A stretch of DNA of 64,000 nt from an uncultured bacterium (GTDB taxonomy: Bacteria > Eisenbacteria > RBG-16-71-46). The notes below the pieces were generated by a model. It was not told the origin of the DNA, ran no database searches, and saw nothing but the letters and a program-made list of their open reading frames with translations. The stretch lies in contig CAZIVR010000001.1 of NCBI GenBank assembly GCA_964542745.1, positions 43,041 through 107,040 on the forward strand, given 5' to 3'. Below, in pieces: positions 2,955-55,277 of this stretch. Position numbers and translations under genes: made by a program. Numbering within the stretch: the stretch's first letter is position 1; the number at the start of each line of letters is the position of its first letter.

Positions 2955-3908
2955 TCAGCGGGCGACGACCACCCTCGCGGCGCGCGCGACGCCGCCCCGG
3001 CTCACCCTCGCGAAGTAGAGCCCGGGAGCGAGCGGCGCCCCGGCCGAAAGCTCCACCGCCTGCCGACCCGGCCCCGCCGCGTCCAGCGCGCGGGACGCCA
3101 CCCGGCGGCCGGCGAGGTCGAGCAGCTCGACCTGCGCGGGCCCCGCGCCCGGCAGCGACAGCTCGAGGCGCACCCGGCCGCCGTGCGCCGGGTTCGGGGT
3201 CGCGCGCACGGCGAGCGCGCCCCGGGCGAAGTCTCCGTCCACGCCGGTGGTCTGGGTGGACACCTCGACCGAGACGGCGTCGAGCGCCCACGACTCGTCG
3301 TCCCCGCCCTGCCACTGGGCGGCGGCCGGACCGGAGATCGCGCTGATCGTCCACAGCACCACCACGGAGTCGGCGGTGTGCGGAATGTCGAGGAAGGCCG
3401 GCTCCGCGCCGAGGTCGTAGGCGCGGTCGCGGTGGTAGTAGCAGCAGCCGCTGAAGCCCAGGTTGGTGCCCATGCTCAGGATCGCGCCGGGGGGCGCGGG
3501 GTGATAGCTCGTCGTGTCGCCCGTCGCGAGCTGGAACCAGTGGTTGAACCGAAGGGAGTCGTCCACCCGGATCTGCATCAGCTCGGTGCCGTCCCACGAG
3601 TCGATCAGCCCGAGCAGGAACTTGACGCTGAGCCGGTCGTGGGGCGGGAGGTTGCGCACGGTGAGCGTGGTCGGGAGGATCGGGACGCTGGTGTAGCGGA
3701 GGAAACTGCCGCCGAACTGACGCCCGGCAGGACCGAGTCCCGCGAAGCCCTGGACGCCGGTCAGGACCGCGCCTGGCGCCGAGAACTCGGGGGGCACGCC
3801 GCTCTCGAACTGGGTCGAGAACACCACCACGGGGGAGGCGAGCGCCGGAGTGGCCAGCAGGCCCGCGGACAGGAGGAGGGGAAAGAGCCTCGAGGTGAGG
3901 AAGCGCAT
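2955..3908 (-). CDS. Secreted protein with FlgD-Ig/T9SS-CTD-like C-terminal domain
   Basis: GGAGG upstream of ATG 3908; signal peptide MRFLTSRLFPLLLSAGLLATPALA; C-terminus ATPNP...DLAGRRV...PGLYFARV. Confidence 0.8.
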   Translation of the reverse strand: MRFLTSRLFPLLLSAGLLATPALASPVVVFSTQFESGVPPEFSAPGAVLTGVQGFAGLGPAGRQFGGSFLRYTSVPILPTTLTVRNLPPHDRLSVKFLLGLIDSWDGTELMQIRVDDSLRFNHWFQLATGDTTSYHPAPPGAILSMGTNLGFSGCCYYHRDRAYDLGAEPAFLDIPHTADSVVVLWTISAISGPAAAQWQGGDDESWALDAVSVEVSTQTTGVDGDFARGALAVRATPNPAHGGRVRLELSLPGAGPAQVELLDLAGRRVASRALDAAGPGRQAVELSAGAPLAPGLYFARVSRGGVARAARVVVAR

Positions 3909-4057
3909 CGGTGCCTCCGCGAACGGGGGGTACTGCATCCCGCGCCGGGGTGCGAAACGTGGCGCGGGCCTGCTCCGTGAGACGACGCCGCGCCCGGGGC
4001 GTCAGCGCCTCCGCCCCGGAAATCATGGCCCGGCTTGCGGCGCCGGGGAAAACGATT

Positions 4058-4668: not shown

Positions 4669-7284
4669 TCAGTTCCCGCGGACGACGGTTCGGGTTCGAG
4701 TCTCGAGGCCGGAGGAGACGCGCGCGAAGTAGACGCCGGCGGGAACCCGATCGCCGCGCGAGCTTCGGCCGTCCCACTCGAGCACGTGCCGCCCGGCGGC
4801 AAGACGTCCGGATGCGAGCCCCGCGACGCGCCGCCCGGAGAGGTCGTAGATCGCGGCCTCGACCGCGCTTGGCGCGGGTAGCTCGAGAGTCAGCCGAACC
4901 TGCCCGCGACTCGGATTGGGCGCGGGCGCCGACAGCTCGAGCCGCACCGCCGACGGGGGAGCCGGCACGTCGAGCGGGAGCTGCGTGAGATCCAGCGTCC
5001 ACTGGGAGCGCCCGTGGGTCGCCGCGATCAGCCGTCGGGTGCCCCCCGCGGAGTAGAGCGAGAGGTCGAAGACGGTCTGGACCGGCATCCCGGTTCCGAG
5101 CGGGAACCAGCCCGCGCCCTGGTTGCGGCTCGCGTAGACCCCGACGTCGGTCGCGAGGTACAGCGACTGGGTGTCGGTCGGGTCCACGACGATGTCGTTG
5201 GCCGGGACGTCCGGCAGGTTGGCGGAGATCGAGGTCCAGCTCGTTCCCCGGTTGGCGCTCCGGTAGACGTGCGAGAGGTGCTCGTCCTGCCCGAAGCCGG
5301 AGAGGGTGACGTAGACCGCGTTCGGGTCCGAGGGATCCGGGGTCACGCGCGTCACGTAGCGGAGCGGCAGCCCGGCCGAGACGTTCTCCCAGGTTCCGCC
5401 CGCGTTCTGGGAGCGCCACACCCGGCCGTCGTCGGTCCCCGCGTAGTAGAGGGCGGTGTCGGCGGGGGAGATCGAGAGGGTGGTCAGCGTGCCGTAGACC
5501 AGGCTCGAGGGCGGGGCGCCGCTCAGGTCGCCGCTCACCGGCACGTAGCTCGAGCCCGAGTTGGTGCTCTTGTAGACCCGGTGGCTGCCGACCAGCAGGA
5601 TCGCCGGGTTCGCGGGGTTCATAGCGATCGGCGTGTTCCAGTTGTAGCGGTCGCCGCTCGAGAAGCCCGACGGGGTGATCCACGAGGACCCGCCGTTGAT
5701 CGAGCGGCGGAGCCCCGAGCGGTCGCAGCAGTACTGCCACTCGGCGTAGATCACGTTGGGATCGGCCGGGCTCACGATGGTCTGGAATCCGTCGCCCCCG
5801 AGGATGATCGTCCACCCGCTCGGCGATCCGGTCGTGATCATGGTGCTGTTGTCCTGCGTGCCCCCCAGCAGCCGGTCGGGGTTCGAGGGATCCACGCTGC
5901 CCGCGTAGAACTGCGTGATCGGCGTGTCGAGCGACTGCGTCCACCCGACGCCCCCGTTCAGCGAGGAGAAGAACCCGCCGTCGTTGCCGAGGTAGACGCG
6001 GTTCTGGTTCGACGGGTCGATCCACACGCCGTGGTGGTCCACGTGGGTGCCGCTCTGGATGCTGGTGAGCGTGGTGCCGCCGTCCAGCGAGCGCAGGAGG
6101 CCCACCCCCTGCACGTAGACCCGGTTGGGGTCGGTCGGGGAGACGGCCACGTCGCCGAAGTACCAGCCGAAGCCGCCGAAGTTGTTGGTGAAGGTGGAGC
6201 CGCCGCGTGGGCCCCAGACGTTGCCGCCGTCGGCGGTGCGGTACAGCGCGCGGCCGGTGTAGCCGCCGATCGCCCCCGAGATGATCTGGGCGTACACCAC
6301 CGAGGGTTGCGACTTCGCGATCGCGAGCCCGATGCGGCCGAGGTTGTCGTCCGAGGCCGGCAGCCCGCCGGCGAGCTTGGTCCAGGTGGTGCCGCCGTTG
6401 ACGCTGCGCCAGACGCCGCCGCCGGGCCCGTAGGCGCGCCGGTAGGTGGAGCGCCGCACCCGCTCCCACGTGGCGCAGAACATCGTCTCGGGATGGGCCG
6501 GATTGATCACCACGTCGCACACGCCGGTGCTGTCGTTCACGAACAGGACCTTGGTCCAGTTCGCGCCCCCGTCCTCGCTCCGGTAGAGGCCGCGGTCGGG
6601 GCTGGTCGAGAACTGGGTGCCCATCGCCGCGACGAACAGGCGCTGGGGGTTCACGGGGTCCACCGCGATGCGCGCGATGCGCCGCGTCTCCGCGAGCCCG
6701 AGCGACGTCCAGCTCGCGCCGCCGTCGGTGGTGCGGAACACGCCGGCCCCGTCGTAGGAGTCCACCGACGAGTTGGCCTCGCCGGTGCCGACGTAGACGG
6801 TGTTCGCGTCGGTCGGGTGCATTGCGAGCGCGCCGATCGAGAACACGCCCATCTCGTCGAACACCGGCGTCCAGTTCACCCCGGAGTTGGTGGACTTGAA
6901 CACGCCGCCCCCGGCCGCGCCGAAGTAGGCCGGGTTGCCGCCCGGGGCCGCGACCACCGCCGTGACGCGGCCGCCGATGTTGAACGGGCCCGCCTGCACC
7001 CACGCCGGGCCCGCCAGCGTGCCGTTGCCGCGCCCGCGCGCCGCGCGCGCCCGGTCGGCCCGGGCCTGGTCGTAGGCCGCGATCCACTTCTCCTGGGGCA
7101 CGGTCTCGAAGGGAAAGGCCCGCTGCGCCATGAACCACTCGTTCGGGACCTTGCCGGCCTCGGACTTCTCGCGCGGGCCGTCGGCCGGGACGCCGGCGGC
7201 CCGCGGACGGTGCAGGAGCAGGCCACCGGCGGCGGCGGCGACGAGCAGCACGGCTGCGGGAACGAGGGCACGGTCGAGGCGCAT
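4669..7284 (-). CDS. Secreted VPS10/BNR-repeat (GH74/sortilin-like) beta-propeller protein with FlgD-like CTD
   Basis: 871 aa; repeated S/T-x-D/N-GG-x-T/S-W Asp-box motifs; N-terminal signal/anchor; C-terminus PAPNP...DLSGRRV...WDGRSSRGDRVPAGVYFARV. Confidence 0.88.
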   Translation of the reverse strand: MRLDRALVPAAVLLVAAAAGGLLLHRPRAAGVPADGPREKSEAGKVPNEWFMAQRAFPFETVPQEKWIAAYDQARADRARAARGRGNGTLAGPAWVQAGPFNIGGRVTAVVAAPGGNPAYFGAAGGGVFKSTNSGVNWTPVFDEMGVFSIGALAMHPTDANTVYVGTGEANSSVDSYDGAGVFRTTDGGASWTSLGLAETRRIARIAVDPVNPQRLFVAAMGTQFSTSPDRGLYRSEDGGANWTKVLFVNDSTGVCDVVINPAHPETMFCATWERVRRSTYRRAYGPGGGVWRSVNGGTTWTKLAGGLPASDDNLGRIGLAIAKSQPSVVYAQIISGAIGGYTGRALYRTADGGNVWGPRGGSTFTNNFGGFGWYFGDVAVSPTDPNRVYVQGVGLLRSLDGGTTLTSIQSGTHVDHHGVWIDPSNQNRVYLGNDGGFFSSLNGGVGWTQSLDTPITQFYAGSVDPSNPDRLLGGTQDNSTMITTGSPSGWTIILGGDGFQTIVSPADPNVIYAEWQYCCDRSGLRRSINGGSSWITPSGFSSGDRYNWNTPIAMNPANPAILLVGSHRVYKSTNSGSSYVPVSGDLSGAPPSSLVYGTLTTLSISPADTALYYAGTDDGRVWRSQNAGGTWENVSAGLPLRYVTRVTPDPSDPNAVYVTLSGFGQDEHLSHVYRSANRGTSWTSISANLPDVPANDIVVDPTDTQSLYLATDVGVYASRNQGAGWFPLGTGMPVQTVFDLSLYSAGGTRRLIAATHGRSQWTLDLTQLPLDVPAPPSAVRLELSAPAPNPSRGQVRLTLELPAPSAVEAAIYDLSGRRVAGLASGRLAAGRHVLEWDGRSSRGDRVPAGVYFARVSSGLETRTRTVVRGN

Positions 7285-10945: not shown

Positions 10946-13900
10946 TCACGGCAACCTCGTGACTCTTCGCTCCGCAACGAATCCTCCTGCCGTGATGCGG
11001 CACAGATAGACGCCCGCGCCGGCACGTCCACCTGCATCGAGCCTTCCGTCCCACATCGCCGAGTGACGCCCGGCCGGCAACTGCCGGTCGAGTAGCTCGG
11101 CCACGCGGCGGCCCTGTACATCGAAGATCTCGATCCGCACGCGGCTCGCCCGCGGCAGGTCGAAGCCGATCGTGGCCGAACTCGCGAACGGGTTGGGCCG
11201 GACCGGATGGAGCGCGAACTCCATGGGCGCCGCCGCCACGTCCGACGCGGGCTCGCGCCCGGAGACGGGCCCGCGTGAGGGGCCGCGCGCCCCACTCGCG
11301 AGCGCCGCTCCCGGCACCCGCACCACGAACAGGCAGTCCTCGCCCTCGCCCGGCGAGGTTGCGGGGGCAAAGCCGATCGTGAGTGTGTCGCCGGCCACGA
11401 AGTCGGCGGCGGCCGAGCCATCGGCCGCGCCTGAGAGGTCCCCGAGCCGCGAGTGGTTCGCACCCGTGAGCGCGTAGCGCCTGGGTGCCAGCACCACCGA
11501 CTCGAGCGTCGCCCCGGCCGGGAACACCAGCCGCCCCATCCCCGGCAGCGCGCGCACCCCGGCGCGGCCCGGCAGGAGCGGAGTCGTCACGTCCGTCACC
11601 CAGCCTTCGGCCTCGCTAAAGCTCTCGGCCACCATCGCCCGTTCGGTCGCGGCGAGCCGCGCGGGATCCTCCGCGAAGTCCTCGATCGTGAGCTGCCAGC
11701 GCGGCTCCGCCTCGCCCGCGTGCCCGGCCACGAGCCGCGAGGTAGTGGCGGCACTCGCGAGCGCGTGGCGCTCGGCCAGTCCCCGGAGGGCCGTCGCGCC
11801 GCGCGCCGGGGCGGATGGATCGGGCACGCCGTCGCCTTCGCCCCGGGTCCGCTCCGCCGAAGCCCCGGCGCCGCTCCCTCCGCACGAGGTGAGCGTCCCG
11901 AACTCGGCGTAGGCGAGCGGCGACCAGTGCCCCGACGTGCTGCGGGTGCGGCCTGCCACGTATACCAGCGTGCCCGGTTCCAAGTCGGTGAGAGTCCCCG
12001 CCGTCTGCGAGGTCCCCCCGGTGGCCGGGTCCGGCACGCCGGGGATCAAGCTCGCCGCCGCGAAGTTGGACGCGGAGATCGGCGCCAGCGACCAGCGCAC
12101 CTCGTACTCCTGCGCCTTTCCCGAGCAGCCGGAGTCCCCGGGGGCCGCCCAGCGCAGTGGCCCGATCGTGCTGCACGTGATCAGGTCCGCGGTGAGGTCC
12201 AGCTCGTCGGGGGCCGGGGTCGTGGAGGAGTTCACCCGGACCCAGCGGGCGATGGAGGGCACGTCAGCGCTCTGCGAGGTGCCGAGCACGAACAGCAGGT
12301 AGTCCCCGGGTGGCGCAGCGTCCGGGCTATCCGGGGTCGTGAGATGGAGCCTTGCCGGGGATGACTTCTTCGCGAGGATGGTGAGGGGGATGAACCGTTG
12401 GTTCATGTCCATCGAATGGGTGGTCGCACCGGGACGCATCAGGCAGGCGCTCTGGATGCTGGCGGTGTTGTCCACGCACACCGTGAACGCCGTGCCCCAG
12501 GTGATCTCCGCCGGTGCGCCCTGGATCTGCGGCCGCGTGGTGATCGGGTTCCCGCCCGAGTCGAACAGGTACGGCGGGCAGAAGAGCTGCGCCAGGCGCT
12601 TGTCGGCGTCGGCCTGCGTGTCGCCGGGACCCTGATTCTCACCCCCGGCGCTCAGCACGCGCCCGTCGGGAAGCAGGATGGCGGTCGAGTGGTCACCCCG
12701 GATGGTTCCCTGTTCGGCCAGCCGGTCCGACCCCGTCATGCTGGTCCAGGTTCCGCCACCGCTGGTTCCGGGAGTCCAGATCTGCGGCCGCTTTACCGGC
12801 CCCGCGCTGACGTTGTCGAAGACGTTGTTGCCGCCCACGGCGAGCACCTTGCCGTTGGGAAGCAGGACGAGATTGTGGTGCGACCGTGGCGCCATGTCCT
12901 CGGAAGCGACCCACGCGCTGTCGAAGCTCGCCGTGTTGAAGGTGATGGTGCGACCGGTGATCGCGTTGCCGGCATCGCTCCCGCCGGCCAGCATGATCTT
13001 CCCCGGGAGGTACTGGACGCCAGTCTTGGGGCGGAACAGCAGGCGATTGTCGTGCAGCGTGTCCCATTGGGCCGCCTGCCCGGTGGCCGGGAAGTCGCTC
13101 CAGTAGGCGCGCATGTCGTCGGTATTGATGTTGATCACCCGGCTGCCGCCGCTGTCGGCGCCCGGCACCACGAAGAGGGGCGGGTAGGAGCCCTGGAACA
13201 TCCGAGCGTTCGAGTGGAGGGTCCACTGGTTCGTGGCGGGGTCGTAGACCTCGGGGCTGCGCGCGATCTCGGCGAAGGGATCGAGCGAGGCCGTGTGGCC
13301 CCTCAGGCTGAAGCCGAGGTCGGACCACTGCTTCCAGGAGTTGTCGCTGGCCCAGGGGTCCACGATGTAGCTCTTCGAGTCGGCCGGCACGACCGAGCCG
13401 CCGGAGGCTCTCTCGCCGCCATACACGTAGAGCCGCGACCCGCCCTGGTTCCGGTCGAGCACCGCGCTGTGCCGCGCGCGGGCTCCGGGGGAGGTGCCGC
13501 CACCGGAGAGCAGCTTCCAGCCGTACCTCCCGTCGCCGAAGAGCCACAGCGCCCACAGCTCGTCCGAGTAGCTCAGGTCCCCGAGCTTGCCGCCATAGAG
13601 CAGGGCGGCGTGGGCGTTCGAGTGGCTGGCGTCGAAGTTGCGCGGCTTGTTGTCGGCGCTGAGCGTGTGCCACAGGCGGGCGGCGGGCTGGCCGTCTCCG
13701 AGTTCCTCCCGCACCATCGTGTGCCAGGTCGGGTTCGCCGGGTCCGAGGGGTTGAAGCGCAACTCGTAGACGTTCTGGTCCGTCGGCGTGCCGTTATGGC
13801 TCGTGGCGCCGCCGAACACGATCATGCGCTTGCGCAGCGTGTCGCTCACCATGGTCTCGTCGTAGATCGCCGTGTGACCGTAGCGGGCTGCCGGGCCGCC

Positions 13901-14995
13901 GGTGGCGCCGATCGCGTTCCAGGTATAGGTCAGGAACGTCGGACTGAAGGCGATTCGGCGAGCGTGGCTCAGGAGGTTGCCGCCTTCATCGAGCCCTCCG
14001 AATACGACGAGGGTGAGGTTCGAGTCTTTGACCGCGATCGCCGAGTGATCGGTCCGGCGAGGCTGTACGCCGCCCCCGGGCTGGATCTTGACCCAGTTGT
14101 ACGTCTGGCCGGCCCCGAGCTGGTTGCGATCCTGCATCAGTCGCCACAGGTCGTTCGCGGGTCCGGTCGCGGTCGTTCCACCGAACACCGTGAGCCCGTT
14201 GAACCCGAGGATCCCGGTCATCTCGGTCGCCGTGTGTCCGCTGCGCGGCGCGGGGCGGCCGTCCGGTCCCGCCGTGGGCAGCACGGGAGTGTCCCACTCG
14301 CCGTCGGGAATGGGCTCGAACCGCTGCAACGAGTCCGCAACGGGGCTCGCGGGCGGCGAGCCATTGCGGTCGCCGAACAGCACGCGATGCCGGGGGTGCT
14401 GGTTGCCGCTCACCACCAGGCCCTTGCCGGATCGCAGCGTGGCGACCGACGCGTACCAACGCCAGTCGTTCATCAGGGACGGCACCGACCAGCTCCCGAT
14501 CCCGCTGGATCCCGAGCCCGAGTGGAACACGTGCGCCTTGTTCTCGCCGTATTGCTTGGTCACCGGATGGGTGCCGCTTGCGAACAGAACCGCGCCATTG
14601 TCGCCGATTGCGGCGTGCCCGCTGCAGAACAGGTCCATGCTGGCGGTCGGCGCGTCGAGCTGCGCGAAGTTAGCGTCCGGGAAGTCCGAACATCCGTCGT
14701 TGCCGGGTGTCCAGCCCCACTGGCCGCCCAGCATCACGTCGGGCCCAAGCAGCTGCTTGTGGAACCAGAGGACGCGGCTGTGGTGCGGGTTGCCGTCGCC
14801 CTTCAGCAGCAGGAGGTGCACGGCGTAGCGTTCGCTGTGGCCGCGGCTCCAGTCCCGGGTCGGAGACCACGCGCCAAGGTCGGCCGCGGCAAGGCCGACC
14901 ATGACGGCCAGCGAGGCGGCAATGCCGGCAAAGTAGGCGAGGGAGAGTGGGCGAACTCGGAACCCTGACAGGACAAGGCGAGACGGACGCGACAT
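10946..14995 (-). CDS. Secreted galactose/glyoxal oxidase (AA5)-like Kelch protein with DUF1929 domain, Fn3-like domain and FlgD-like CTD
   Basis: DLFCSGH, WRWYAS, RGDHSTAILLPDGRVLSAGG, RPGATTHSMDMNQR, APPGDYLLFV; internal extra Kelch repeats; C-terminal RPNP...DVQGRRV...WDG. Confidence 0.82.
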   Translation of the reverse strand: MSRPSRLVLSGFRVRPLSLAYFAGIAASLAVMVGLAAADLGAWSPTRDWSRGHSERYAVHLLLLKGDGNPHHSRVLWFHKQLLGPDVMLGGQWGWTPGNDGCSDFPDANFAQLDAPTASMDLFCSGHAAIGDNGAVLFASGTHPVTKQYGENKAHVFHSGSGSSGIGSWSVPSLMNDWRWYASVATLRSGKGLVVSGNQHPRHRVLFGDRNGSPPASPVADSLQRFEPIPDGEWDTPVLPTAGPDGRPAPRSGHTATEMTGILGFNGLTVFGGTTATGPANDLWRLMQDRNQLGAGQTYNWVKIQPGGGVQPRRTDHSAIAVKDSNLTLVVFGGLDEGGNLLSHARRIAFSPTFLTYTWNAIGATGGPAARYGHTAIYDETMVSDTLRKRMIVFGGATSHNGTPTDQNVYELRFNPSDPANPTWHTMVREELGDGQPAARLWHTLSADNKPRNFDASHSNAHAALLYGGKLGDLSYSDELWALWLFGDGRYGWKLLSGGGTSPGARARHSAVLDRNQGGSRLYVYGGERASGGSVVPADSKSYIVDPWASDNSWKQWSDLGFSLRGHTASLDPFAEIARSPEVYDPATNQWTLHSNARMFQGSYPPLFVVPGADSGGSRVININTDDMRAYWSDFPATGQAAQWDTLHDNRLLFRPKTGVQYLPGKIMLAGGSDAGNAITGRTITFNTASFDSAWVASEDMAPRSHHNLVLLPNGKVLAVGGNNVFDNVSAGPVKRPQIWTPGTSGGGTWTSMTGSDRLAEQGTIRGDHSTAILLPDGRVLSAGGENQGPGDTQADADKRLAQLFCPPYLFDSGGNPITTRPQIQGAPAEITWGTAFTVCVDNTASIQSACLMRPGATTHSMDMNQRFIPLTILAKKSSPARLHLTTPDSPDAAPPGDYLLFVLGTSQSADVPSIARWVRVNSSTTPAPDELDLTADLITCSTIGPLRWAAPGDSGCSGKAQEYEVRWSLAPISASNFAAASLIPGVPDPATGGTSQTAGTLTDLEPGTLVYVAGRTRSTSGHWSPLAYAEFGTLTSCGGSGAGASAERTRGEGDGVPDPSAPARGATALRGLAERHALASAATTSRLVAGHAGEAEPRWQLTIEDFAEDPARLAATERAMVAESFSEAEGWVTDVTTPLLPGRAGVRALPGMGRLVFPAGATLESVVLAPRRYALTGANHSRLGDLSGAADGSAAADFVAGDTLTIGFAPATSPGEGEDCLFVVRVPGAALASGARGPSRGPVSGREPASDVAAAPMEFALHPVRPNPFASSATIGFDLPRASRVRIEIFDVQGRRVAELLDRQLPAGRHSAMWDGRLDAGGRAGAGVYLCRITAGGFVAERRVTRLP

Positions 14996-15194
14996 GGCGG
15001 CCTCCGCTTGGCATGACGTGGTGGACGATCAAAGAACCACGCGGGCCGTCGCGAAAGTCGTACCGGGATGAGGAACCTCGGCGGCGACGCGGAATGAAGA
15101 AAGGCTGGATCCACCCCGGGCACTGTGTCAACGTCTTTATCGCTTCCGGCCCCTCTTGGGGTCGGGTGGACATTCACTGAAGGACACGTTCTCG

Positions 15195-17174
15195 ATGATG
15201 CCCCGGCTGACCCCATCACTGGCCCTGGGGACCCTCCTGGCCACGACTTCTGCTCCCACCTCCGCCCTGGCTCAGTGGCAGCCAGACGGCGTGGCGGTAA
15301 GTGGGGCCTCGGGCGGGATCAACCTGGTGATCGCGGACGGCGAAGGGGGTGGCTACTTCGGGTGGCGCAACGGCGCCAACGCCGGCGATGTCTGGATTCA
15401 GCGGCTGGACGCGTTCGGACTCCCGCCCTTTGGCTGGCAAGCGGGCGGAATCCCCTTGGCGCTTCTCCCGGAATCTCAAGATCTCGTCGAGATCACTCGT
15501 GACGGCACCGGCGGCCTGCTGGTGCTCTGGGAGCACAACATCAACGACGCGCCGACCAGTGCGGATCTCTTCGTCCAGCGCGTGCTTGGCGACGGCTCGA
15601 TCGCTCCCGGTTGGCCCGCGCCTGGCCTCCGGATACTCGCTCCCGGACAGCAGACTCTCTCGGGAATCGCCTCGGATGGCGCGGGCGGAGCGTACATCGT
15701 GTGGCAGGACGACCGTGCCTGGGCCACTCGGCGCTACGACGTGTACGCGCTCCATCTGCTTGCCGATGGCAGCATCGCGCCCGGCTGGCCCGCGGATGGG
15801 CTCCCGATCGCGGCACTTCCGGGACACAACGCCGGTCCGCTCATTGTCTCGGATGGAGTCGGCGGGGCGTTCATCCTCTGGGCCGACGATCGCAACAACC
15901 CGGGCGGCGTGGGGGATACTTACGGCGTGCGGATCAACGGCGACGGCACGCTGGCCCCGGGCTGGGTCGCGAACGGCAATCGGCTGACCGTGCTCCAGCC
16001 ACGCCGGGGTCTGGTGCCCGACGAATCGGGCGGGATCTACCTGTGGACCACCAATGCGGGCGCCACGCCGGGCTTCGACAACGAATACTTCCTCTACCGG
16101 TTCACGGCCGCGGGCGCGCCGTCACCGGGGTGGCCCGCGAACGGCGTGCTGCTGTGCAGCGTGCCGGGGGACCGGGCCGCCACCTCGATGGAGCCGGACG
16201 GACAGGGCGGGGTGCTGCTGGCCTGGTACGACTACCGGCCGCCCTACGACCAGAGTTGCGGGGAGATTTTCGCCCTGCGGGTGCTGCCGAGCGGAGCGCG
16301 GGCGCCGGGCTGGAGCGCGAACGGATCGCTGGTGAGCGATCCGACCAACTCGACCTGCGAATACACGCCGGGAATCACCCGGGACGAGATGGGCGGCGCG
16401 TACATCGTGTGGACCATGAACGGGCCCTCCCAGGTGCAGCACCTGACCGCGAGCGGCCTGCCCGCGCCGGGCTGGCCGCCCTTCGGGGTGAGACTGGCTT
16501 CGTCGGGGGCGCAGAACGATCCCCAGATCGCGGCCGATGGCGAGGGGGGTGCGATCGTGGCGTGGTCGGAGGCGTGTTGCGGGCGGCTGCGGGTGTGGGC
16601 GCAGAAATACGTGCCGACCGGGATCGTGGCGGCGAGCCTGTCGCTGGTGAGCTCGGTCGCCGAGCGCGGGCGGGTGAGCCTCGAGTGGTTCGCGGCGAAT
16701 GGCGCCGGGCTCGCGGCCACGGTGGAGCGCCGCGAGGGCGACGAGGCATGGCGTCCGCTCGCGAACCTCACCGCCGATGGCACCGGGCACCTGCGCTACG
16801 AGGATCGGGACGTGACGCCGGGGGCGCGGTACCGCTATCGCCTCGCCTACCGCGACGGAGGAGCGGCGATGCACAGCGCCGAGACGCTCGTGGAGACGCC
16901 GGCAGCACTGGAACTGGCGCTCGAAGGGTTCCGGCCCAACCCGGCGGTGGGGCCGCCGCTGGTGTCGTTCACGCTGGCGCGATCCGCCCACGGCACGCTC
17001 GAGCTCTACGACCTCGCCGGGCGGCGCATGGCATGGCGCGACCTCGACGGGCTGCCTGCTGGCAGGCACGTGGTGCGGTTCGAGAGCCACCCGTCGCTGG
17101 CGCCGGGAGCGTATGTCATACGGCTCACGCACGCTGGCCGGGTGACCGCGGCTCGAGGCGTCGTGGTCAGATGA
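15195..17174 (+). CDS. Secreted repeat beta-propeller protein with FlgD-like CTD
   Basis: GAAGGA RBS before ATG 15195; signal peptide; about seven repeats of DGxGGx(Y/F)xxW...PGWPxxG; C-terminus RPNP...DLAGRR...PGAYVIRL. Confidence 0.8.
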   Translation: MMPRLTPSLALGTLLATTSAPTSALAQWQPDGVAVSGASGGINLVIADGEGGGYFGWRNGANAGDVWIQRLDAFGLPPFGWQAGGIPLALLPESQDLVEITRDGTGGLLVLWEHNINDAPTSADLFVQRVLGDGSIAPGWPAPGLRILAPGQQTLSGIASDGAGGAYIVWQDDRAWATRRYDVYALHLLADGSIAPGWPADGLPIAALPGHNAGPLIVSDGVGGAFILWADDRNNPGGVGDTYGVRINGDGTLAPGWVANGNRLTVLQPRRGLVPDESGGIYLWTTNAGATPGFDNEYFLYRFTAAGAPSPGWPANGVLLCSVPGDRAATSMEPDGQGGVLLAWYDYRPPYDQSCGEIFALRVLPSGARAPGWSANGSLVSDPTNSTCEYTPGITRDEMGGAYIVWTMNGPSQVQHLTASGLPAPGWPPFGVRLASSGAQNDPQIAADGEGGAIVAWSEACCGRLRVWAQKYVPTGIVAASLSLVSSVAERGRVSLEWFAANGAGLAATVERREGDEAWRPLANLTADGTGHLRYEDRDVTPGARYRYRLAYRDGGAAMHSAETLVETPAALELALEGFRPNPAVGPPLVSFTLARSAHGTLELYDLAGRRMAWRDLDGLPAGRHVVRFESHPSLAPGAYVIRLTHAGRVTAARGVVVR

Positions 17175-19165: not shown

Positions 19166-19951
19166 TCAGGCGGACCGGGAGGGCTCGGCCGCGGGGCGCC
19201 GCGCCCGGTACAGCGCGAATCCCATCGTGTCGCGCCCCCAGCGGCGGTAGAGCGCGTGCCACGAGCGGCTGCGGGCGAGGAACGCCTCGCGGTCGGGGTC
19301 GGCCGGGTGGGCCTCGAAGTGGCGCTCGATGTTCGCGGCGTAGCGGTCTTCGTACGCGTCCCACTCGGCCTCGGTGCTGGCCGCCTCGTCGAGCAGCTCG
19401 AAGCCCGCCGCGGCCAGCGCCGCGCGGTTGTCCTCGAGGGTGCCCAGTTCGTCGCGCGAGCCGCCGAAGCCGGCGAGGTACTCGGGTTCGGGTTCGCGTT
19501 TCCAGTAGCCGTGCCCGAGCAGGAGCCGGCCGCCCGGGGCGAGCCGCCGGTGGAGCGCCGCGAGCGCCTCCGGAAGCGCGCCCAGGGCGTGCGCCGAGCC
19601 CACGCACATCGCGAGGTCGAAGGTGCGGGAGCCCGCGAGCGCCGTCGCGGCCGCGCCCTCGATCCACTCGATGCCGCCGCCGGCGCCGGGCGCGCCCCCC
19701 GCCGCGGCGCGGGCGCGGGCCTCGTCGAGGAACGTTGGGTTCAGGTCCACACCGGTGCCGCGCGCGCCCCAGCGGGCGACCACCCGCACCAGCAGTTCGC
19801 CTTTTCCGCACCCCACGTCGAGCACCCGCGCGCCGGGTTCGAGTTCGAGCGCCTCCACGAAGCGGCTGAGGGTCCCGGCGCCGAGCGGGTTGCAGAAGTC
19901 GTGCGTCGCGTGGGCGAGGGTCGTGAAGCGATAGGGGTTCGCTCCGCTCAT
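19166..19951 (-). CDS. Class I SAM-dependent methyltransferase
   Basis: VLDVGCGKGELL, GVDLNP, FDLAMCVGS, LAPGGRLLLGHGYW. ATG 19951 overlaps the upstream stop (ATGA). Confidence 0.9.
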   Translation of the reverse strand: MSGANPYRFTTLAHATHDFCNPLGAGTLSRFVEALELEPGARVLDVGCGKGELLVRVVARWGARGTGVDLNPTFLDEARARAAAGGAPGAGGGIEWIEGAAATALAGSRTFDLAMCVGSAHALGALPEALAALHRRLAPGGRLLLGHGYWKREPEPEYLAGFGGSRDELGTLEDNRAALAAAGFELLDEAASTEAEWDAYEDRYAANIERHFEAHPADPDREAFLARSRSWHALYRRWGRDTMGFALYRARRPAAEPSRSA

Positions 19952-20772
19952 CGCTCCCACGCCAGGGTCGCGCCGATTCGGGCGAAGGGCCCGCCCAGGT
20001 CGAGGTCGCGTCCCGCCACGAAGTCGCGCAGCTCGTCGTCGAAGTCGAAGGCGAAGCGCGAGCCCCCCGACTGGCTCGACGCGCGGGTGCCGCTGTAGGA
20101 GAGGGGCGTCCGGTGGTGGCGCCAGCCGGCCGCGAAGCGGAGCCCGAGCGGACCGTCGCCGGCCACGACGCCGAGCTCGAGCGAGCCCGCGAAGCCGTGG
20201 CCCTTGCCGAGCGCCGTGCCGCCCGGGGCCGAGAACTGGAGCCGCGCGCTCCCCACGCCGGCCGCGGCCTGCGCGTAGGCCGACGTGCCGCGGCGCGCGC
20301 CGGGCAGCGTCCAGCGCGCGGCGACCAGCCAGGCGTTGCTGGTGGCGTCCGCCTCGGTCGGGTATTCGGCCAGCGCGCCGCCGCCCGAGGCCTCGCGCAC
20401 CGCGAACTCGGACTTGCCCGTGGGCCGGTCGTACTGGATCCCGGCGAAGAGGCCGGGCCGGAGCCTCGCGAGGATCGCGGCCTCGAACGACGTGGTGGTG
20501 GCCGGGAGGTTGGAGGTGGTGACGGCGAGTCCCGAGGCGCGCGCGCCGGACTCGAGGCTCGCCACGCCGTCGTTCCACTCGCCCATCCCGGCCCACGCCT
20601 GCTGGAGCGCGAGCTCGGCGACGAAACCGCGCGTGGCCCGCGCCTCGGCGCGCGGGGGAGGAGACGCCGGGTAGGCCGGAGGCTCGGCCGCCGTGGCTGC
20701 AGTCGGTGCGCTCCCCGCCGGGGCCGCGAAGGCGAGCGCGGCGATCGCGAACGCCGTGGCCGCGCGCCCCAA
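19948..20772 (-). CDS. Putative outer-membrane beta-barrel protein
   Basis: Signal-like RAATAFAIAALAFAAPA, then alternating amphipathic beta-strands and a C-terminal ...ARIGATLAWER. Start uncertain (TTG 20772 or TTG 20835). Confidence 0.6.
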   Translation of the reverse strand: MGRAATAFAIAALAFAAPAGSAPTAATAAEPPAYPASPPPRAEARATRGFVAELALQQAWAGMGEWNDGVASLESGARASGLAVTTSNLPATTTSFEAAILARLRPGLFAGIQYDRPTGKSEFAVREASGGGALAEYPTEADATSNAWLVAARWTLPGARRGTSAYAQAAAGVGSARLQFSAPGGTALGKGHGFAGSLELGVVAGDGPLGLRFAAGWRHHRTPLSYSGTRASSQSGGSRFAFDFDDELRDFVAGRDLDLGGPFARIGATLAWER

Positions 20773-20811
20773 AGCGCGGCGGCCACTCGCGGAGTCGCGG
20801 GTGGCCGCCGG

Positions 20812-20899
20812 GGCCGGGATTCCGGCTCGCGTCAACGGTACAGCGCTTTCATCCGGCCCCACGACACCGCGGTGGCCGGCACCGCGTCCTGGATCGAGA
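20812..20899. repeat. 88-bp perfect direct repeat, copy 1
   Basis: GGCCGGGATTCCGGCTCGCGTCAACGG...CTGGATCGAGA is identical to 21777-21864 (offset 965 bp). Confidence 0.92.
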
Positions 20900-21764
20900 C
20901 CTGGTGAACGGCGCCGCCCTCGTATCTCACATCCGCGACGTAGATCGTCGAATTGTTGAACAGAACCAGATCCAGCGGCTGCGTAAAGTTGGCTGTTCCC
21001 ATGTAAGCCAGCGCCTCGAGCCGCGTGCCCCCCGGAGCGTGGACCGAAAGCACTCCATTGACATACACGCCCCAGGAGATGGCGAAAATACGTCCCGAGT
21101 TGTCCACGTCGATGCCCCGAACGCTCGAATTGATCACGGTGGGGATGGATCCCAGCGGGACGCCGTCCTCGTTGAACTTGAATACGAGTCCGTTGACATC
21201 CCCGGCGAGATAGACCACGCCATTTCGGACCGCAAGAACGCATGCGGCGGTGGTGAGCGACCACGATGCGGTCAGCGCCCCCGTCGTGTCCCAGCGACGG
21301 ATCGTGGTCACACCGCTGTTGTTCGTGGCGATAAAAATACGATCTGCCGAACCGAGCTTGGGGGTGGACCAACCGTGGGTTCCTCTCGGCACCGGCCAAG
21401 CGCTGAGGACTCGACCGGAATCATTCATCAGGATGAGGCGGGGAAAGGCACCACCAAGGTCGAGCGTGAGGAGCCGACCATCCGACATTCTCAAAGCGCC
21501 ATGGTGGCTGGAAATCTGGTCGTCGCCCGGCCACTGAGAGGCGACGCGCGACAGGAGCAGGCTCCAGGACTCGCTGTAGCGAAACATTGCTCCGGAGTCC
21601 GTGAGCAACAGCGTTCCATCGCCGGCGTCTGCGATCGCACGGGTGTTCGTGCCCGGATAGATCGTCCGCTGGAAGTGCAGGATCTGGGCGCGCACCTCGG
21701 TCGCCGCTCCCGCGAGCGCGACGAGCAGGAGTGCGGGGATCAGGCACGCGGGGTTCGTCTTCAT
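20832..21764 (-). CDS. Secreted NHL-like beta-propeller protein with C-terminal SWGRMKALYR motif (paralog B)
   Basis: GGAG RBS before ATG 21764; MKTNPACLIPALLLVALAGAATEVRA signal; ends QDAVPATAVSWGRMKALYR. Confidence 0.8.
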   Translation of the reverse strand: MKTNPACLIPALLLVALAGAATEVRAQILHFQRTIYPGTNTRAIADAGDGTLLLTDSGAMFRYSESWSLLLSRVASQWPGDDQISSHHGALRMSDGRLLTLDLGGAFPRLILMNDSGRVLSAWPVPRGTHGWSTPKLGSADRIFIATNNSGVTTIRRWDTTGALTASWSLTTAACVLAVRNGVVYLAGDVNGLVFKFNEDGVPLGSIPTVINSSVRGIDVDNSGRIFAISWGVYVNGVLSVHAPGGTRLEALAYMGTANFTQPLDLVLFNNSTIYVADVRYEGGAVHQVSIQDAVPATAVSWGRMKALYR

Positions 21765-21776
21765 GATTCGCTCCGA

Positions 21777-21864
21777 GGCCGGGATTCCGGCTCGCGTCAA
21801 CGGTACAGCGCTTTCATCCGGCCCCACGACACCGCGGTGGCCGGCACCGCGTCCTGGATCGAGA
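21777..21864. repeat. 88-bp perfect direct repeat, copy 2
   Basis: Identical to 20812-20899; covers the last ~22 codons of paralog A plus 20 nt downstream of its stop. Confidence 0.92.
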
Positions 21865-22753
21865 ACTGGTGCACCGCGCCAAAGCCCCAGCTTCCGTCCG
21901 CGATGTAGATGGTCGAGTTGTTGACCAGCACCAGGTCGGACGGCGCCGAGAACGAGCTGCCCGTACCCGGGCGATCCAGCGCCTGGAGGCGCGTGCCGCT
22001 GGGAGCGAGGATCGAAAGCACCGCGACGCCACCCGGGCTCCCGGCGATGGCGAGGATCCGGCCCGAGGCGTCCACGTCCATGCCCTGCACGCTCGATCCG
22101 ATCACGGTGGGGACCGACCCCAGCGAGACACCGCCCTCGTTGAACTTGAAGATCTGCCCGCTGGCATCCCCGGCGAGGTAGACCACGCCGTTCCGGACCG
22201 CGAGCACGCACGCGGCGGTGTTGAGCGACCACGACGCGGTGATCGTCCCCGCGGCGTCCCAGCGGCGAACCGTGGTCACGCCGTTGGTGTTCGTGGCGTG
22301 GAAGACCTGCCCCGCCGATCCGAGTTCGGGCGTGGACATGGCGGTCAGCCCGCGCGGCACCGGCCACTCGCCGAGCCGTGCGCCGGCGTCGTCGAAGAAA
22401 ACGAAACGCGACCCGATCCATTCGCCGCCCGGCGCACCGCCGGGATCGAACGTCAGCAGGCGGCCGTCCGGCAGCCGGAGGCCGCCGATCGTGTTGACGA
22501 ACGGCTCGCCGCTCACTCCCGGCGAGTAGTTCTCGCGGGACATGAGCAGGCTCCACCCCCCGGAGTAGCGGCGAAACGTGTTGTGACTCGTGACGAGCAG
22601 CGTTCCGTCGCCGGCGTCGGCGAGCTTGCGCGCGGGAACTCCGGGCAGGATCGTCTGCTGGAAGAGCAGGATCTGGGCGCGCGCCTCGGTGGCCGCGCCG
22701 GCGAGCGCGACGAGGAGGAGCGCGGCGAGCGAAAGGGCCGGACTCGGTTTCAC
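21797..22753 (-). CDS. Secreted NHL-like beta-propeller protein with C-terminal SWGRMKALYR motif (paralog A)
   Basis: GGAGGG RBS before GTG 22753; aligns end to end with paralog B (AQILxFQxTIxPG..., WSLxTAACVLAVRNGVVYLAGD, identical tail). Confidence 0.8.
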   Translation of the reverse strand: MKPSPALSLAALLLVALAGAATEARAQILLFQQTILPGVPARKLADAGDGTLLVTSHNTFRRYSGGWSLLMSRENYSPGVSGEPFVNTIGGLRLPDGRLLTFDPGGAPGGEWIGSRFVFFDDAGARLGEWPVPRGLTAMSTPELGSAGQVFHATNTNGVTTVRRWDAAGTITASWSLNTAACVLAVRNGVVYLAGDASGQIFKFNEGGVSLGSVPTVIGSSVQGMDVDASGRILAIAGSPGGVAVLSILAPSGTRLQALDRPGTGSSFSAPSDLVLVNNSTIYIADGSWGFGAVHQFSIQDAVPATAVSWGRMKALYR

Positions 22754-24019: not shown

Positions 24020-24451
24020 GGCGGGCTCCGGTCGGACGGATCGCGGCGGCGTTCGAGTCGCGGAGAGTAGCGCGGGGGGCCGGTGGGTCCAAGCCGGGAG
24101 ACACCGCGCGAGACCCGGGCCGGCTCCCGGCCGTGGGCGCGACGCGGGTGTCGCCCGCGCCGACACTTCGGCCGGCGGGAACGGGGGCATGAACGACTTC
24201 ATCTCGGGCGGCCGGGCCCGGACGCCGGGCGATGCCCCCGGAAATCGCGGCGCCGGCCGGGCGATTCGGCGTGCGAATCGCGACGACGTCCCGGCCCGTC
24301 CCTCCCGGCACCGTGCTTGCGTTCCCGGAGGGTGAGGCGTGAATCTGCGGCCCCTCGACCCGGGGACGCGGCGTGCGCCCTCGGACACGGACGCCCGGCC
24401 GCCCTTCGCGGCGGCGAGCTTCGCAGCCTTCGACCCACTGGCGGATCCTTC

Positions 24452-27400
24452 ATGCACCTCGCGAACGCGCACCCTTCGGGACTCGGGCGGCTGGGAAATC
24501 ACGCGCGATCCCCGCGTCATTCGGCCACGACCTCGGGGCTACCGGCCGGGACCCTCGCGCTGGCCGTGCTTTTCGCAATCCTCGCGGCGCCGGCCTCGTT
24601 CGCCGACACCGTGCTCCACCGCGTCAACGTGGGAGGGGCGCCACTGGCCGCGCTCGACGCCGGGCCCGCGTGGAGCGAGGACTCGAACGCGAACCCCTCC
24701 TCGTACGTGAACTGGGCGCAGTCCGGGAACTGGTTCGGCGGCACCGACCAGCCGATGGGCGCGCCGCACCCTTCGGTGCCCGCGTACGTGCCGGCCGCGC
24801 TCTTCGACACCGAACGCTGGGACTGGGCGGACGCCGACGACCAGACCTGGGAGTTCCCGGTCCCGAACGGAACGGTGCGCGTCAACCTGCTGTTCGCCGA
24901 GGGCTGCAACTGCGCGAACTTCGCGAACGGCCGGAAATTCGACGTGGACCTGGAAGGCGCGCAGGTGCTCGACGATTTCGACCAGTTCGCCACCTTCGGC
25001 AGCTTCACGCCGGGCATGCAGACCTTCCTCGTGAACGTCGCCGACGGGGGACTCACCCTCAAGCTCCGTCACGGGCCCGCCAACGCGCCCTCGATCCGCG
25101 GCATCGAGGTGGTGCAGGTGGACGTGAGCCAGACGCTCCAGTCGTCGCGCACCTCGATCGGCTTCGGCACGGTGTTCGTGGACTCGACCTCGGGCCCGCA
25201 GGGCGTCACGCTCACCCACCTCGGCTCGGGCGGCGATCCCTCGATCACGATCACGGGCGTCTCGGTCACCGGGCCCTTCACCCACACCCTCGCGCCCCAG
25301 ACGCTGCTGCCGGGACAGAGCCGCAACTTCAACGTGAAGTTCACGCCCACGGCGGTGGGCCCGGCGAACGGCACGCTCACCGTGACCCACTCGGGCGACA
25401 ACAGCCCGATCGAGATCGCGCTCGCGGGGACCGGCGCCAACGTGCCGCCGATCGGATTCGGGAAGTCGTGGCTTCAGGGGCTGGTCGCGGCGGGCCCCAC
25501 GTCGCTCCAGTTCGGGCCGGACGGGCGGCTCTACATCGCCGAGATCAACGGCGCCATCCTCGTCGCCGACGTGGTCCGCACCGCGCCCAACGTCTATCAG
25601 GCGAGCCTCGCCCACATCCTCGACCACGTGAAGAACATCCCGAACCACGACGACGACGGCTCGCTCAACCCGAGCCTGGACACCCGCCTCGTCACCGGCC
25701 TGCTCGTGACCGGCACGCCGTCGAACCCGGTGATCTACGTGACGAGCTCGGACTCGCGGATCCAGGAGTCCGGCTTCCCCGGCTCCGACACCAACTCGGG
25801 GATCCTCTCGCGCCTGACGTGGAACGGGTCCGCCTGGGAGAAGCTCGACCTGGTGCGCGGGCTGGCGCGCTCGCAGGAGAACCACGCCTCGAACGGGCTC
25901 GCCCTCGACACCCTCACGAACACGCTCTACATCGCCTCGGGGGGCCACACCAACATGGGGGCGCCCTCGAACAACTTCTACTTCCTGCCCGAGTACGCGC
26001 TGTCCGCCGCGATCCTTTCGGTGGACCTCGACGCGATCGGCGAGACCACCTACGACCTCCCGACGCTCGACGACGAGGACCGGCCCGGAGTCAACGACGC
26101 GAACGATCCGTTCGGCGGCAACAAGGGCAAGAACCAGGCGCGGATCGTTCCCGGCGGGCCGGTCCAGGTTCACTCCTCGGGCTACCGCAACCCCTACGAC
26201 GTGGTGTGGACCGGGGCCGGGCGCCTCTACACGATCGACAACGGCCCGAACATCGCGTGGGGCGGTCCCCCGGTCGGGGAAGGGCCCGGCGACGGCTGCA
26301 CGAACGCCATCAACGAATCGAACAGCGCGACGCTGAACGACAACCTCCATCTCATTCCCGCGGCCGGCTACTATGCCGGTCATCCCAACCCGACGCGGGC
26401 CAGCGTCGCCAACACCTTCAACGCGTCCAACCCGCAATCGCCGGTCCCGGCCGGCAATCCGGCCGAGTGCGACTACCTCGAGCCGGGCGTGGACGGCTCG
26501 CTCGCGTCGTGGCCGTACTCCACCAACGGGCTCTGCGAGTACCGCGCCTCGAACCTCGGCGGCGCGCTTCAGGGCAACCTGCTCGCCGCGAGCTTCAACA
26601 ACGACGTCCAGCGCATCGTGCTGAACGCCGCGGGCGACAGCGCCGTCAGCGTGGGGGCGCTCTTCTCCAACGTCGGCAACATCCCGCTCGACATCACGGC
26701 CCAGGGCGACGAGGGGCCGTTCCCGGGCACGATCTGGGTGTGCAACCTGGGCTCGGGGCTGATCGCGGTGTACGAGCCCTCCGACTACGACGGCAACACC
26801 AGCACCTGCACCGGCGCTGACGACGACCAGCTCGACGAGGACGGCGACGGCTACAACAACGCCGACGAGATCGACAACGGCACCAGCCCGTGCTCGGCGG
26901 GGGACTTCCCGTCCGACTTCGACTCGGACTTCCTCTCCGACCTGAACGATCCCGACGACGACAACGACGGCTGGCTCGACACCGTGGACCCGTTCGCGAT
27001 CGACGCCTCGAACGGCGCCACGCCCATGCCCGTCCTGTACTCGTGGGACGCGGGCAACCCGGGCTTCGGCCTGCTCGGCGTGGGCTTCACCGGGCTCATG
27101 ACCGACAGCCTCACCGACTACCGGCTCCAGTACGACCCGGTCCAGATGACCGCGGGCGGGGCCGCCGGCAAGGTGACGATCGACAACGTGCCCGCGGGCG
27201 ACGCGCTGGGCGCGCAGAACGACCAGCGCTACGCGTTCCAGTTCGGAGTCGCCACCGACTCCACGAGCCCGGTGTTCCTGGTGCGGACCCGCGCCTCGAC
27301 CCCGTACTTCAACGGCAGCCCGCCGAGCGGCTTCCAGTCGCAGGGGCTCTACGTCGGCGACGGCGCCGACGACGACTACCTGAAGATCGCGATCGCCCGC

Positions 27401-28036
27401 GACGGCGCCGATCCCGCCATCGAGGTGGTCCACGAGGTGGACGGCGTGCCGACCTCGTTCGTGATTCCCGTGCCCGGGCTGCTCGCCGGGACGGGCGTGG
27501 ATCTCCAGTTCGTGGTGGACCCGCTGGCCGCCACGATCCAGCCGCGCTACGCCTACGCCGGTGGCCCGATCCAGAACGCCGGCGCGCCGGTCGCGCTGGT
27601 TCCGGGTTCGAAGCTGCACTCGGCGGTCGTCGGCTCGCCCGCGATGGCGGTCGGCGTCATCGCCACGTCGCGGGGCGCCACGCCGTTCGCCGCGACGTGG
27701 GAATTCATGGACGTGCTACCGATGTCGGGGGTGTCGGTCGAGGGGGCCGTCCGCCCCACGCGCGTCGCCCTCGGGCTCCCGCGCCCCAATCCGTCGCGGG
27801 GCTCGGTCGCGCTGAACCTCTCGCTCGGCTCGGCGAGCCGGGTGGAGGGCGCGGTGTTCGACGTGGCCGGCCGGCGCGTGCGGACCCTCATCCGCGGCAC
27901 GCTCGGGCCCGGCGTCCACCCGCTGCGCTGGGACGGACGCGACGACTCGGGCCGCGCCGTGGCGGCGGGCGCCTACCTCGTGCGCCTCGACGCGGGCGGG
28001 GTGGTCGAATCCCGGCGGGTGCTGATGCTGCGGTGA
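24452..28036 (+). CDS. Secreted malectin + Ig-like + GSDH/PQQ-propeller-like + Asp-rich Ca-binding repeat protein with FlgD-like CTD
   Basis: RVNVGG...VRVNLLFAE...RKFDVDLEG (malectin); IGFGTV...FTPTAVG (Ig-like); GPDGRLY...ENH...GYRNPYD (GSDH-like); DxDxDG repeats; PRPNP...DVAGRRV...WDGRDDSG. Confidence 0.8.
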
Positions 28037-55094: not shown

Positions 55095-55277
55095 CCTCGC
55101 CCGAAGGCCGCCGGCCGCGACATCGGTGGATGCCGTTGCGGAGATCCGGCACACGCGATCGGCAGCGAAGTCGCTCACCTACATCGCTCCGTCCGGTCCA
55201 AGGAGCGGGCGCTCGGCCGGCACCTGCGCGGACGCGGTTTCGGACTCCGCGCGCCGGGGCGGCGACACCGGGCGCAG

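Follow-up and report, generated by a model that had tools for sequence, protein, structure and literature searches.

A short C-terminal tag on exported proteins of Eisenbacteria and allied lineages as a candidate envelope sorting signal

Sorting signals at the C-terminus of bacterial proteins, among them LPXTG, PEP-CTERM and the C-terminal domain (CTD) of type IX secretion system (T9SS) substrates, have each led to a dedicated envelope machine and are used in surface-proteome prediction. The T9SS is defined in Bacteroidota, and its type A CTD (TIGR04183/PF18962; in FCB (Fibrobacteres-Chlorobi-Bacteroidetes) candidate phyla the FlgD_ig-like PF13860) is a folded beta-sandwich of ~80 residues. 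The PEP-CTERM, IPTL-CTERM, MYXO-CTERM and GlyGly-CTERM signals of exosortase, myxosortase and rhombosortase substrates are tripartite, with a motif, a ~20-residue transmembrane helix and an Arg/Lys cluster. Outer-membrane proteins (OMPs) carry a C-terminal aromatic motif, the beta-signal, which is read by BamA/BamD, and their YxF tail is sensed by the PDZ domain of DegS. Surface lipoproteins of Bacteroidota have a lipoprotein export signal (LES), an acidic N-terminal motif joined to the lipidated Cys, whose reader long went undiscovered. Here we analysed a 64,000-nucleotide stretch of DNA from an uncultured bacterium of the Eisenbacteria (contig CAZIVR010000001.1, positions 43,041 to 107,040; hereafter the window), with ~72% G+C, in which two tandem genes for secreted beta-propellers, paralogs A and B, both end in VPATAVSWGRMKALYR-stop. 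Judging from sequence comparison, we consider it likely that the tails of the two paralogs are a copy of a portable, strictly C-terminal tag which is read by a lineage-specific envelope component for sorting or attachment, and the tag is probably an address label that had not previously been described.

Paralog B (21797-22753, minus strand; 318 amino acids plus stop, GTG start behind a GGAGGG site) and paralog A (20832-21764, minus strand; 310 amino acids plus stop, ATG start) are NHL-type beta-propellers that share 61% identity, and both begin with a Sec-type signal peptide of the form ..LLLVALAGAATE[VA]RA followed by Q. The signal peptide read from the sequence of paralog B comprises ~26 residues, VKPSPALSLAALLLVALAGAATEARA (22676-22753, minus strand), and that of paralog A is MKTNPACLIPALLLVALAGAATEVRA (21687-21764, minus strand), the inferred cleavage site lying before Q in each case. 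An AlphaFold2 (AF2) model of paralog B, obtained with an alignment of 24 sequences, showed a six-bladed propeller with a pLDDT of 88 and a pTM of 0.84, in which the signal peptide forms a helix at residues 5-19 and then coil, and the propeller body, residues 29-299 (21857-22669, minus strand), consists of strands with block pLDDT mostly of 85-98. In a Foldseek search the NHL domains of Mei-P26, Brat and TRIM2 came out on top (TM 0.62-0.79), with E values of 1e-10 to 1e-12 for the matches 7nyq, 1q7f and 7qrv. By sequence, the Pfam NHL repeat model PF01436 gave 15.3 bits for one paralog (P0001; gathering cut-off 20) and no match for the other (P0002), while the homologues P0014 and P0028 matched scyF_NHL_VPEP at 7e-38 and 7e-58, respectively. 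The final propeller strand of the model stops at residue 299, after which only 19 residues remain: a hinge, QDAVPATAVS (residues 300-309; 21827-21856, minus strand), delimited by the AF2 coil (pLDDT ~57) and the tag logo, and the tag core, WGRMKALYR (residues 310-318; 21800-21826, minus strand; stop at 21797-21799), of which residues 310-317 (WGRMKALY) appear as a detached helix of low confidence (pLDDT ~63). Given this strand end, the coil and the detached helix, the tail of paralog B is, according to the model, not part of the propeller fold. The corresponding whole tag of paralog A is VPATAVSWGRMKALYR (residues 295-310; 20835-20882, minus strand; stop at 20832-20834), and when all six frames of the window were scanned, WG..K..[YFW] was present only at the C-termini of these two proteins.

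The tail is retained by distant relatives of the paralogs. A HMMER search of 1.8 billion representatives returned 51 relatives of the window propeller, and about 30 NHL propellers of ~180-400 amino acids, at 20-44% identity, keep [ST]WG.[ILVM]K..Y[RHW] at the extreme C-terminus; with its W, G, K, Y and R kept, the tail is the best-conserved segment of their alignment. Two orthologues at 37-38% identity, for example, end in VPALTKTWGGLKAMYR and VPTATHTWGQLKAIYR. A search of a 5.8-billion-protein collection with region 279-318 alone, which offers too few shared words, returned only the window's own two proteins. A degenerate DNA scan for WG.[LIMFV]KA.YR-stop across one genome per prokaryotic species detected at least 120 loci; by our own estimate this pattern carries ~35 bits, for which a few tens of chance matches are expected in 1.2e12 positions. 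The frequencies given from here on hold among the matches listed. Their consensus is (C)..[ST]-P-V-E-x-x-[ST]-W-G-x-[IVLM]-K-A-[LM]-Y-R-stop, and at positions on which the pattern placed no constraint we found [ST] at -1 in 93%, Pro at -6 in 53%, Val at -5 in 51% and Glu at -4 in 56% of the tags, while about half have a Cys at -11 to -9, which the window paralogs do not. Because these free positions are conserved, the tag is more than a product of chance. Both paralogs carry the core WGRMKALYR directly before the stop, with [ST] at -1, Pro at -6 and [VST] at -7; their hinge reads V(-7) P(-6) A T A V S(-1), with Thr in place of the consensus Glu at -4, and this conforms to the flavour of the tag seen in the NHL family, V-P-[AT]-x-x-x-[ST]-WG-x-[ILM]-K-A-L-Y-R. 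Moreover, the codons of the tag vary between genomes (GGC/GGA/GGT/GGG, TAC/TAT, six Arg codons and all three stops), and this synonymous variation indicates selection on the peptide and not on a DNA repeat. Thus, on the evidence of these sequences, we conclude that the motif is real, beyond chance and constrained at the protein level.

The carriers of the tag are diverse, and most of them appear to be exported. When the tails were removed from 101 full-length tail-bearing proteins, the remaining bodies fell into at least 62 BLAST clusters, that is, unrelated families, and the Pfam domains recognised on them include Beta_helix, NHL, InhA-like MAM, FG-GAP, LTD, PD40, CHRD, Cleaved_Adhesin and pectate lyase, besides others. 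A crude scorer assigned signal peptides to 88-93% of the tail proteins and 84-89% of the CTD proteins as against 32-46% of the other open reading frames (ORFs) from the same loci, a rate for tail proteins two to three times that of the other ORFs. Since the scan made its matches terminal by construction, position was judged on relaxed matches that the scan pattern had not selected: 870 kb read in six frames yielded 27, each of them 1-9 residues from a stop and not one internal. The labelled matches come from metagenome-assembled genomes (MAGs) of Eisenbacteria, Krumholzibacteria, Latescibacteria, 'Fibrobacteraceae', Gemmatimonadota, Effluviviaceae and Coatesbacteria, plus one MAG each under the labels Verrucomicrobiia and Isosphaeraceae; roughly half bear no label beyond 'bacterium' or 'uncultured bacterium', and none of the labelled ones is from Bacteroidota or Proteobacteria. 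Among the matches listed the tag is thus confined to Eisenbacteria and allied MAG lineages. The preliminary description of these genes had mentioned similar tails in related uncultured phyla, and they do occur in Eisenbacteria, Krumholzibacteriota, Latescibacterota and allied MAGs; restriction to a single family, which would have spoken against a sorting signal, is contradicted by the 101 bodies in at least 62 clusters, and the co-occurrence with signal peptides foreseen there is what the scorer returned.

The identity of the two window tails has a more local cause, as both lie within an exact 88-nucleotide DNA repeat on the minus strand that comprises the final 22 codons, the stop and 22 nucleotides of 3' flank (copy A, 20812-20899; copy B, 21777-21864). 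Compared in 45-nucleotide windows, the A and B genes are 27-87% identical, and this tract is their sole long exact run. RNA structure was considered as a cause of its identity and rejected, the folding z being -0.6. The repeat arrangement is real, as public contigs of two independent studies confirm, and in X1 and X3 the 88-mer forms a separate unitig at ~2x depth with the paralog A body at flank depth. Metagenomes containing DNA of the window organism are from sand filters, bioreactors and sludge, and in the sand-filter or bioreactor runs X1-X5 its word depth is ~17-30; the sand-filter and bioreactor populations carry both paralogs, whereas the sludge metagenome contigs X6 and X8 have zero depth over 20848-21735, the body of paralog A, and at the junction in X6 contig 22 the downstream flank of A (20786-20807) is followed by the 88-nucleotide tract and then by the body of B. 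A related sludge population hence has one gene where the window has two, with the tail-coding repeat as the boundaries, and this polymorphism arose either through a single crossover in the tract that added a cassette or through loss by recombination between the repeats. In both cases tag-coding DNA serves as homology for the gain or loss of a whole paralog, which hints at a route by which the tag may spread between genes. A repeat that reaches past the stop codon, and a paralog gained or lost between its copies in related populations, could suggest that the shared tail is nothing but an artefact of local duplication or gene conversion, or else a family-specific terminal strand of the propeller. 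We give this next to no probability. The tail is retained by homologues from other metagenomes at 20-44% identity and caps at least 62 unrelated families, by which a local or family-specific reading is refuted, and AF2 puts the tail outside the propeller.

The tails are basic, with a mean net charge of +2.2, and contain interfacial W and Y, which raised another possibility, namely that a basic aromatic tail (W, Y, K, R) simply sticks to a membrane leaflet, lipopolysaccharide or peptidoglycan with no dedicated reader, much as E. coli PBP5 is anchored at the periplasmic face by a C-terminal amphipathic helix. The short helix drawn by AF2 would agree with this, as would the fact that no reader gene was found among the neighbours in the 120 loci listed. 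However, the hydrophobic moment of the tails is less than 1 SD above that of shuffled sequences, for helix and for strand alike, and nine core residues are few for stable anchoring in the plane of a membrane. In addition, W-G, K and Y-R are kept in NHL homologues at 20-44% identity, and unrelated families and phyla conserve the free positions of the hinge and at -1, all of which goes far beyond the needs of lipid binding, and adhesion of this kind leaves the conserved acidic P-V-E hinge unexplained. We therefore judge mere adhesion highly unlikely. Of the earlier portrayal of the tail as amphipathic and basic and placed after a linker, the basic character is confirmed and the amphipathic one much less so; the linker is present, although it measures only ~10 residues in the AF2 model.

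Since known sorting signals also sit at the ends of exported proteins, the relation of the tag to them can be read from homologous bodies. Among the NHL homologues, P0022 and P0047 match PEP_CTERM (TIGR02595) at 22.5 and 16.3 bits (cut-off 16), and P0041 ends in Por_Secre_tail (TIGR04183; 31.4 bits, cut-off 23). When 91 tail proteins were searched against NCBIfam, the bodies recognised included choice-of-anchor W and J proteins, rhombosortase- and myxosortase-dependent M36 peptidases, ExeM (GlyGly-CTERM), ScyF (PEP-CTERM) and a T9SS-dependent DNase; these families are defined by interchangeable C-terminal anchors. Because homologous bodies end in PEP-CTERM or in a T9SS CTD, the tail takes the place of known sorting signals. 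No model in Pfam or NCBIfam was common to the tails of the 91 proteins, a negative that is meaningful since the same search detects the 24-residue PEP_CTERM, and the NCBIfam models, including TIGR02595 and the related CTERM models, did not match either window paralog (P0001, P0002). Literature searches on the tag strings, on CTERM signals in these phyla and on T9SS in these phyla found nothing relevant.

Seven other secreted proteins of the window end in a FlgD-Ig/T9SS-type CTD (2955-3938, 4669-7284 and 10946-14995 on the minus strand; 15156-17174, 24083-28036, 54900-55610 and 55665-60065 on the plus strand), and they include a Sortilin/BNR protein, a double-Kelch galactose-oxidase-like protein, a malectin protein and an NHL/LamG giant. 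Four of the seven exceed the gathering score of Pfam FlgD_ig, and our own CTD hidden Markov model (HMM), which was built from 39 local CTDs, matches every one of the seven; across 54 CTDs, a conserved hinge T-G-V-[PDS] lies 15-21 residues before a PNPF motif. No T9SS core machinery is encoded within the window. Paralogs A and B matched neither our CTD HMM nor, at E <= 1, FlgD_ig (PF13860), Por_Secre_tail (PF18962) or TIGR04183, and they have no folded C-terminal beta-sandwich of 70-100 residues. The preliminary description had both paralogs as secreted, lacking the FlgD-like CTD that the other large secreted proteins of the window use and ending in an identical motif, and ORFs, signal peptides, Pfam and the CTD HMM, together with the seven CTD proteins, bear this out. 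The proposed mutual exclusivity with the FlgD CTD likewise agrees with our counts: none of 126 tail ORFs matches the CTD HMM, although 52 CTD ORFs occur in 39 of the 120 tag loci, so that tag and CTD are co-resident, sharing genomes and often loci as well. Strictly terminal, borne by exported proteins, exclusive with the CTD and found in the slot of known signals, the tail thus lends indirect support to the targeting or anchoring role suggested for it at the outset.

This co-residence could also mean that the tag is a minimal signal of the T9SS-like pathway that handles the FlgD-Ig CTD proteins, with no separate machine, and that the translocon, PorV-like shuttle or PorU/C25-like sortase of that pathway, perhaps with a lineage-specific adaptor, reads it. 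Homologous bodies carry either tag or CTD, both elements end in hydrophobic residues followed by a basic terminal residue, and the hinges are weakly alike (T-G-V-[PDS] in the CTD, [ST]-P-V-E in the tag), a position-specific scoring matrix of the tag hinge peaking at the CTD hinge in 4 of 54 proteins where 0.45 is expected. Very short C-terminal stretches of Porphyromonas gingivalis CTDs have reportedly been critical for export. On the other hand, three of those four coincidences are in a different register, known recognition relies on a folded beta-sandwich 70-100 residues long, tag and CTD are not similar in sequence, and no labelled Bacteroidota stand among the tag loci listed, though the phylum is numerous among sequenced genomes. 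Weighing both sides, we think it unlikely that the tag belongs to the T9SS-like pathway, and no more likely that components of this kind read it.

Like the T9SS CTD, the tag is modular and placed at the extreme C-terminus of unrelated Sec-exported proteins; it differs in comprising only 16-17 residues with a 9-residue core, in showing no detectable similarity to the CTD and in being carried by much smaller proteins. With the CTERM-class signals it shares a short Pro-containing motif near the C-terminus, directly after the folded body, and a basic end, but it has no transmembrane helix: in the window paralogs the hinge is followed only by WGRMKALYR, which contains Lys and Arg, and as only these nine residues, a Lys included, come after the hinge, the tag cannot span a membrane. 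The OMP beta-signal and YxF tail, which are read in the periplasm, are likewise short, linear and C-terminal, and contain a conserved Gly as well as an aromatic residue. OMP beta-signals, however, end in an aromatic residue, follow a beta-barrel body and show alternating hydrophobicity, whereas the window tags follow a soluble propeller and have Arg as the last residue; moreover, the tag allows short extensions, and its spacing is not that of a beta-signal. Within the FCB group the LES is a precedent for sorting by a very short linear motif without a folded domain; the tag differs from it in being C-terminal, basic and mostly on non-lipoproteins. The tag resembles the T9SS CTD, PEP-CTERM and OMP signals only in position and carrier proteins.

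Tag and CTD also differ in the size of their carriers, the median ORF being 252 amino acids for tail proteins and 646 for CTD proteins; tagged proteins mostly have one or no recognised domain, and the CTD is found on large multidomain proteins. Small size, few Pfam domains and the fact that tagged proteins often adjoin large CTD-anchored multidomain proteins would all be expected if the tag were a docking peptide that joins small subunits to a larger anchored surface partner or scaffold protein, for instance by beta-strand addition. The window tail indeed has a larger hydrophobic moment in strand (0.60-0.68) than in helix geometry (0.33-0.38), the tail helix drawn by AF2 is of low confidence, and the toleration of short extensions after YR, which argues against a strict PDZ-type carboxylate clamp, means that docking would require no free carboxylate. 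We nevertheless regard docking as quite improbable: no partner domain or neighbour recurs in the 120 loci listed, and at least 62 unrelated families bear the tag, including enzymes with homologues that rely on classical sorting signals. A tag on so many unrelated families therefore fits an address better than a specific complex.

In the mechanism that we propose for an address tag, the protein would be exported by Sec and its signal peptide removed, as the N-terminus suggests; the propeller would then fold in the periplasm, with the tag held outside the fold on a short flexible hinge, as in the model; and an envelope component specific to Eisenbacteria and allied phyla would read the tag. By positional equivalence, this reader would then direct, retain or attach the protein in the outer envelope, and the tag would play the role that the 80-residue FlgD-Ig/T9SS CTD or the PEP-CTERM tail has on homologous proteins. 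Several points weigh against this proposal. No gene suggestive of a tag reader lies within the window, and in the 120 loci listed no neighbour that is neither tail-bearing nor part of the CTD-linked cluster occurs in more than four, which leaves no reader candidate; the neighbours that do recur look by eye like a radical-SAM-like protein, an extracytoplasmic function sigma factor and a peptidyl-prolyl isomerase-like chaperone. To our knowledge, a core of 9-10 residues without a transmembrane helix or folded domain is unprecedented among known C-terminal sorting signals. Furthermore, a second AF2 model, of an unrelated 185-amino-acid tail family (7 sequences), reached a pLDDT of only 53 and was too poor to replicate the detached tail; the 88-nucleotide repeat spans both window tails, so that the paralog pair is one observation and not two independent ones; and every carrier of the tag is an uncultured MAG.

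It is possible rather than probable that the tag labels an undescribed post-Sec sorting or attachment pathway with an envelope machine of its own, running parallel to the CTD pathway and serving mainly small proteins. With the same reserve, such a pathway might be placed in the diderm Eisenbacteria, Krumholzibacteriota, Latescibacterota and allied phyla, and its signal would have neither a transmembrane anchor nor a folded domain. The tag occurs on many unrelated secreted proteins of several abundant uncultured phyla of soil, sediment and water treatment, and these proteins are annotated as 'hypothetical' or 'periplasmic' because no database model recognises it. Defining the tag would improve localisation prediction for these phyla and offers a handle on the reader, as peptide bait or profiling query; should that reader prove new, a structurally minimal class would be added to the bacterial sorting signals.

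Naturally occurring variants of the core, found in L018 at 3325-3957 (minus strand), L101 at 1153-2625 (plus strand), P0055 and P0020, have Phe for Trp (TFGEIKALYRR, TTFGRIKAAYRDGGQP, TTFGAIKARYHR) or Ser for Gly (TTWSRLKTLSR) and could guide mutagenesis. In a beta-helix family (L024, L025, L052, L067, L078 and L115) a CxxC pair precedes the tag, examples being GCDNCVSSPVE, CPACASPVE, CGPCNSV, CSDCVSPVK and CGDCSSPVE. The DNA pattern gave 7 matches in all of IMG/VR, of which ~5 look genuine and one or two chance-like; contigs L129, L130, L131, L132 and L134, all classed as viral, encode proteins with genuine-looking tag ends (e.g. ...VTPIESATWGSVKALYR), at least two of them with a signal peptide, and these may represent tagged proteins borne by phages, prophage regions or bacterial contigs that were misclassified.

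Immediately downstream of paralog A lies an ORF of 274 amino acids (19948-20772, minus strand) with a signal-peptide-like start and a Gly/Ala/Ser-rich, beta-barrel-looking sequence; it has no Pfam match, and the gene downstream of the orthologue P0005 is unrelated to it, so that synteny is not conserved there. No RNA sequencing run containing a paralog gene was found. The deoxyhypusine-synthase-like gene of the window is 79-87% identical to that of MAGs mostly labelled Candidatus Eisenbacteria and 71-75% identical to that of Gemmatimonadota, which marks the organism as one of Eisenbacteria type. Five SMAG_U* records (L135, L139, L144, L166 and L169), whose MAGs are labelled Saccharimonadaceae, Verrucomicrobiia, Udaeobacter, Acidiferrales and Limnocylindria, have a window-like deoxyhypusine-synthase-like gene at 81-87% identity, as in Eisenbacteria MAGs, and are probably mislabelled or contaminated bins. 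Finally, a lipobox is visible in only 2 of ~100 tail proteins. Two tail proteins, at 5953-6633 of L018 (minus strand) and 2887-3519 of L091 (plus strand), have a lipoprotein-type signal peptide followed by an acidic run (..LVGCSDDD and ..VAGCGKDDP) that resembles the export signal of Bacteroidota surface lipoproteins, and, to judge from these sequences, they may carry two addresses.

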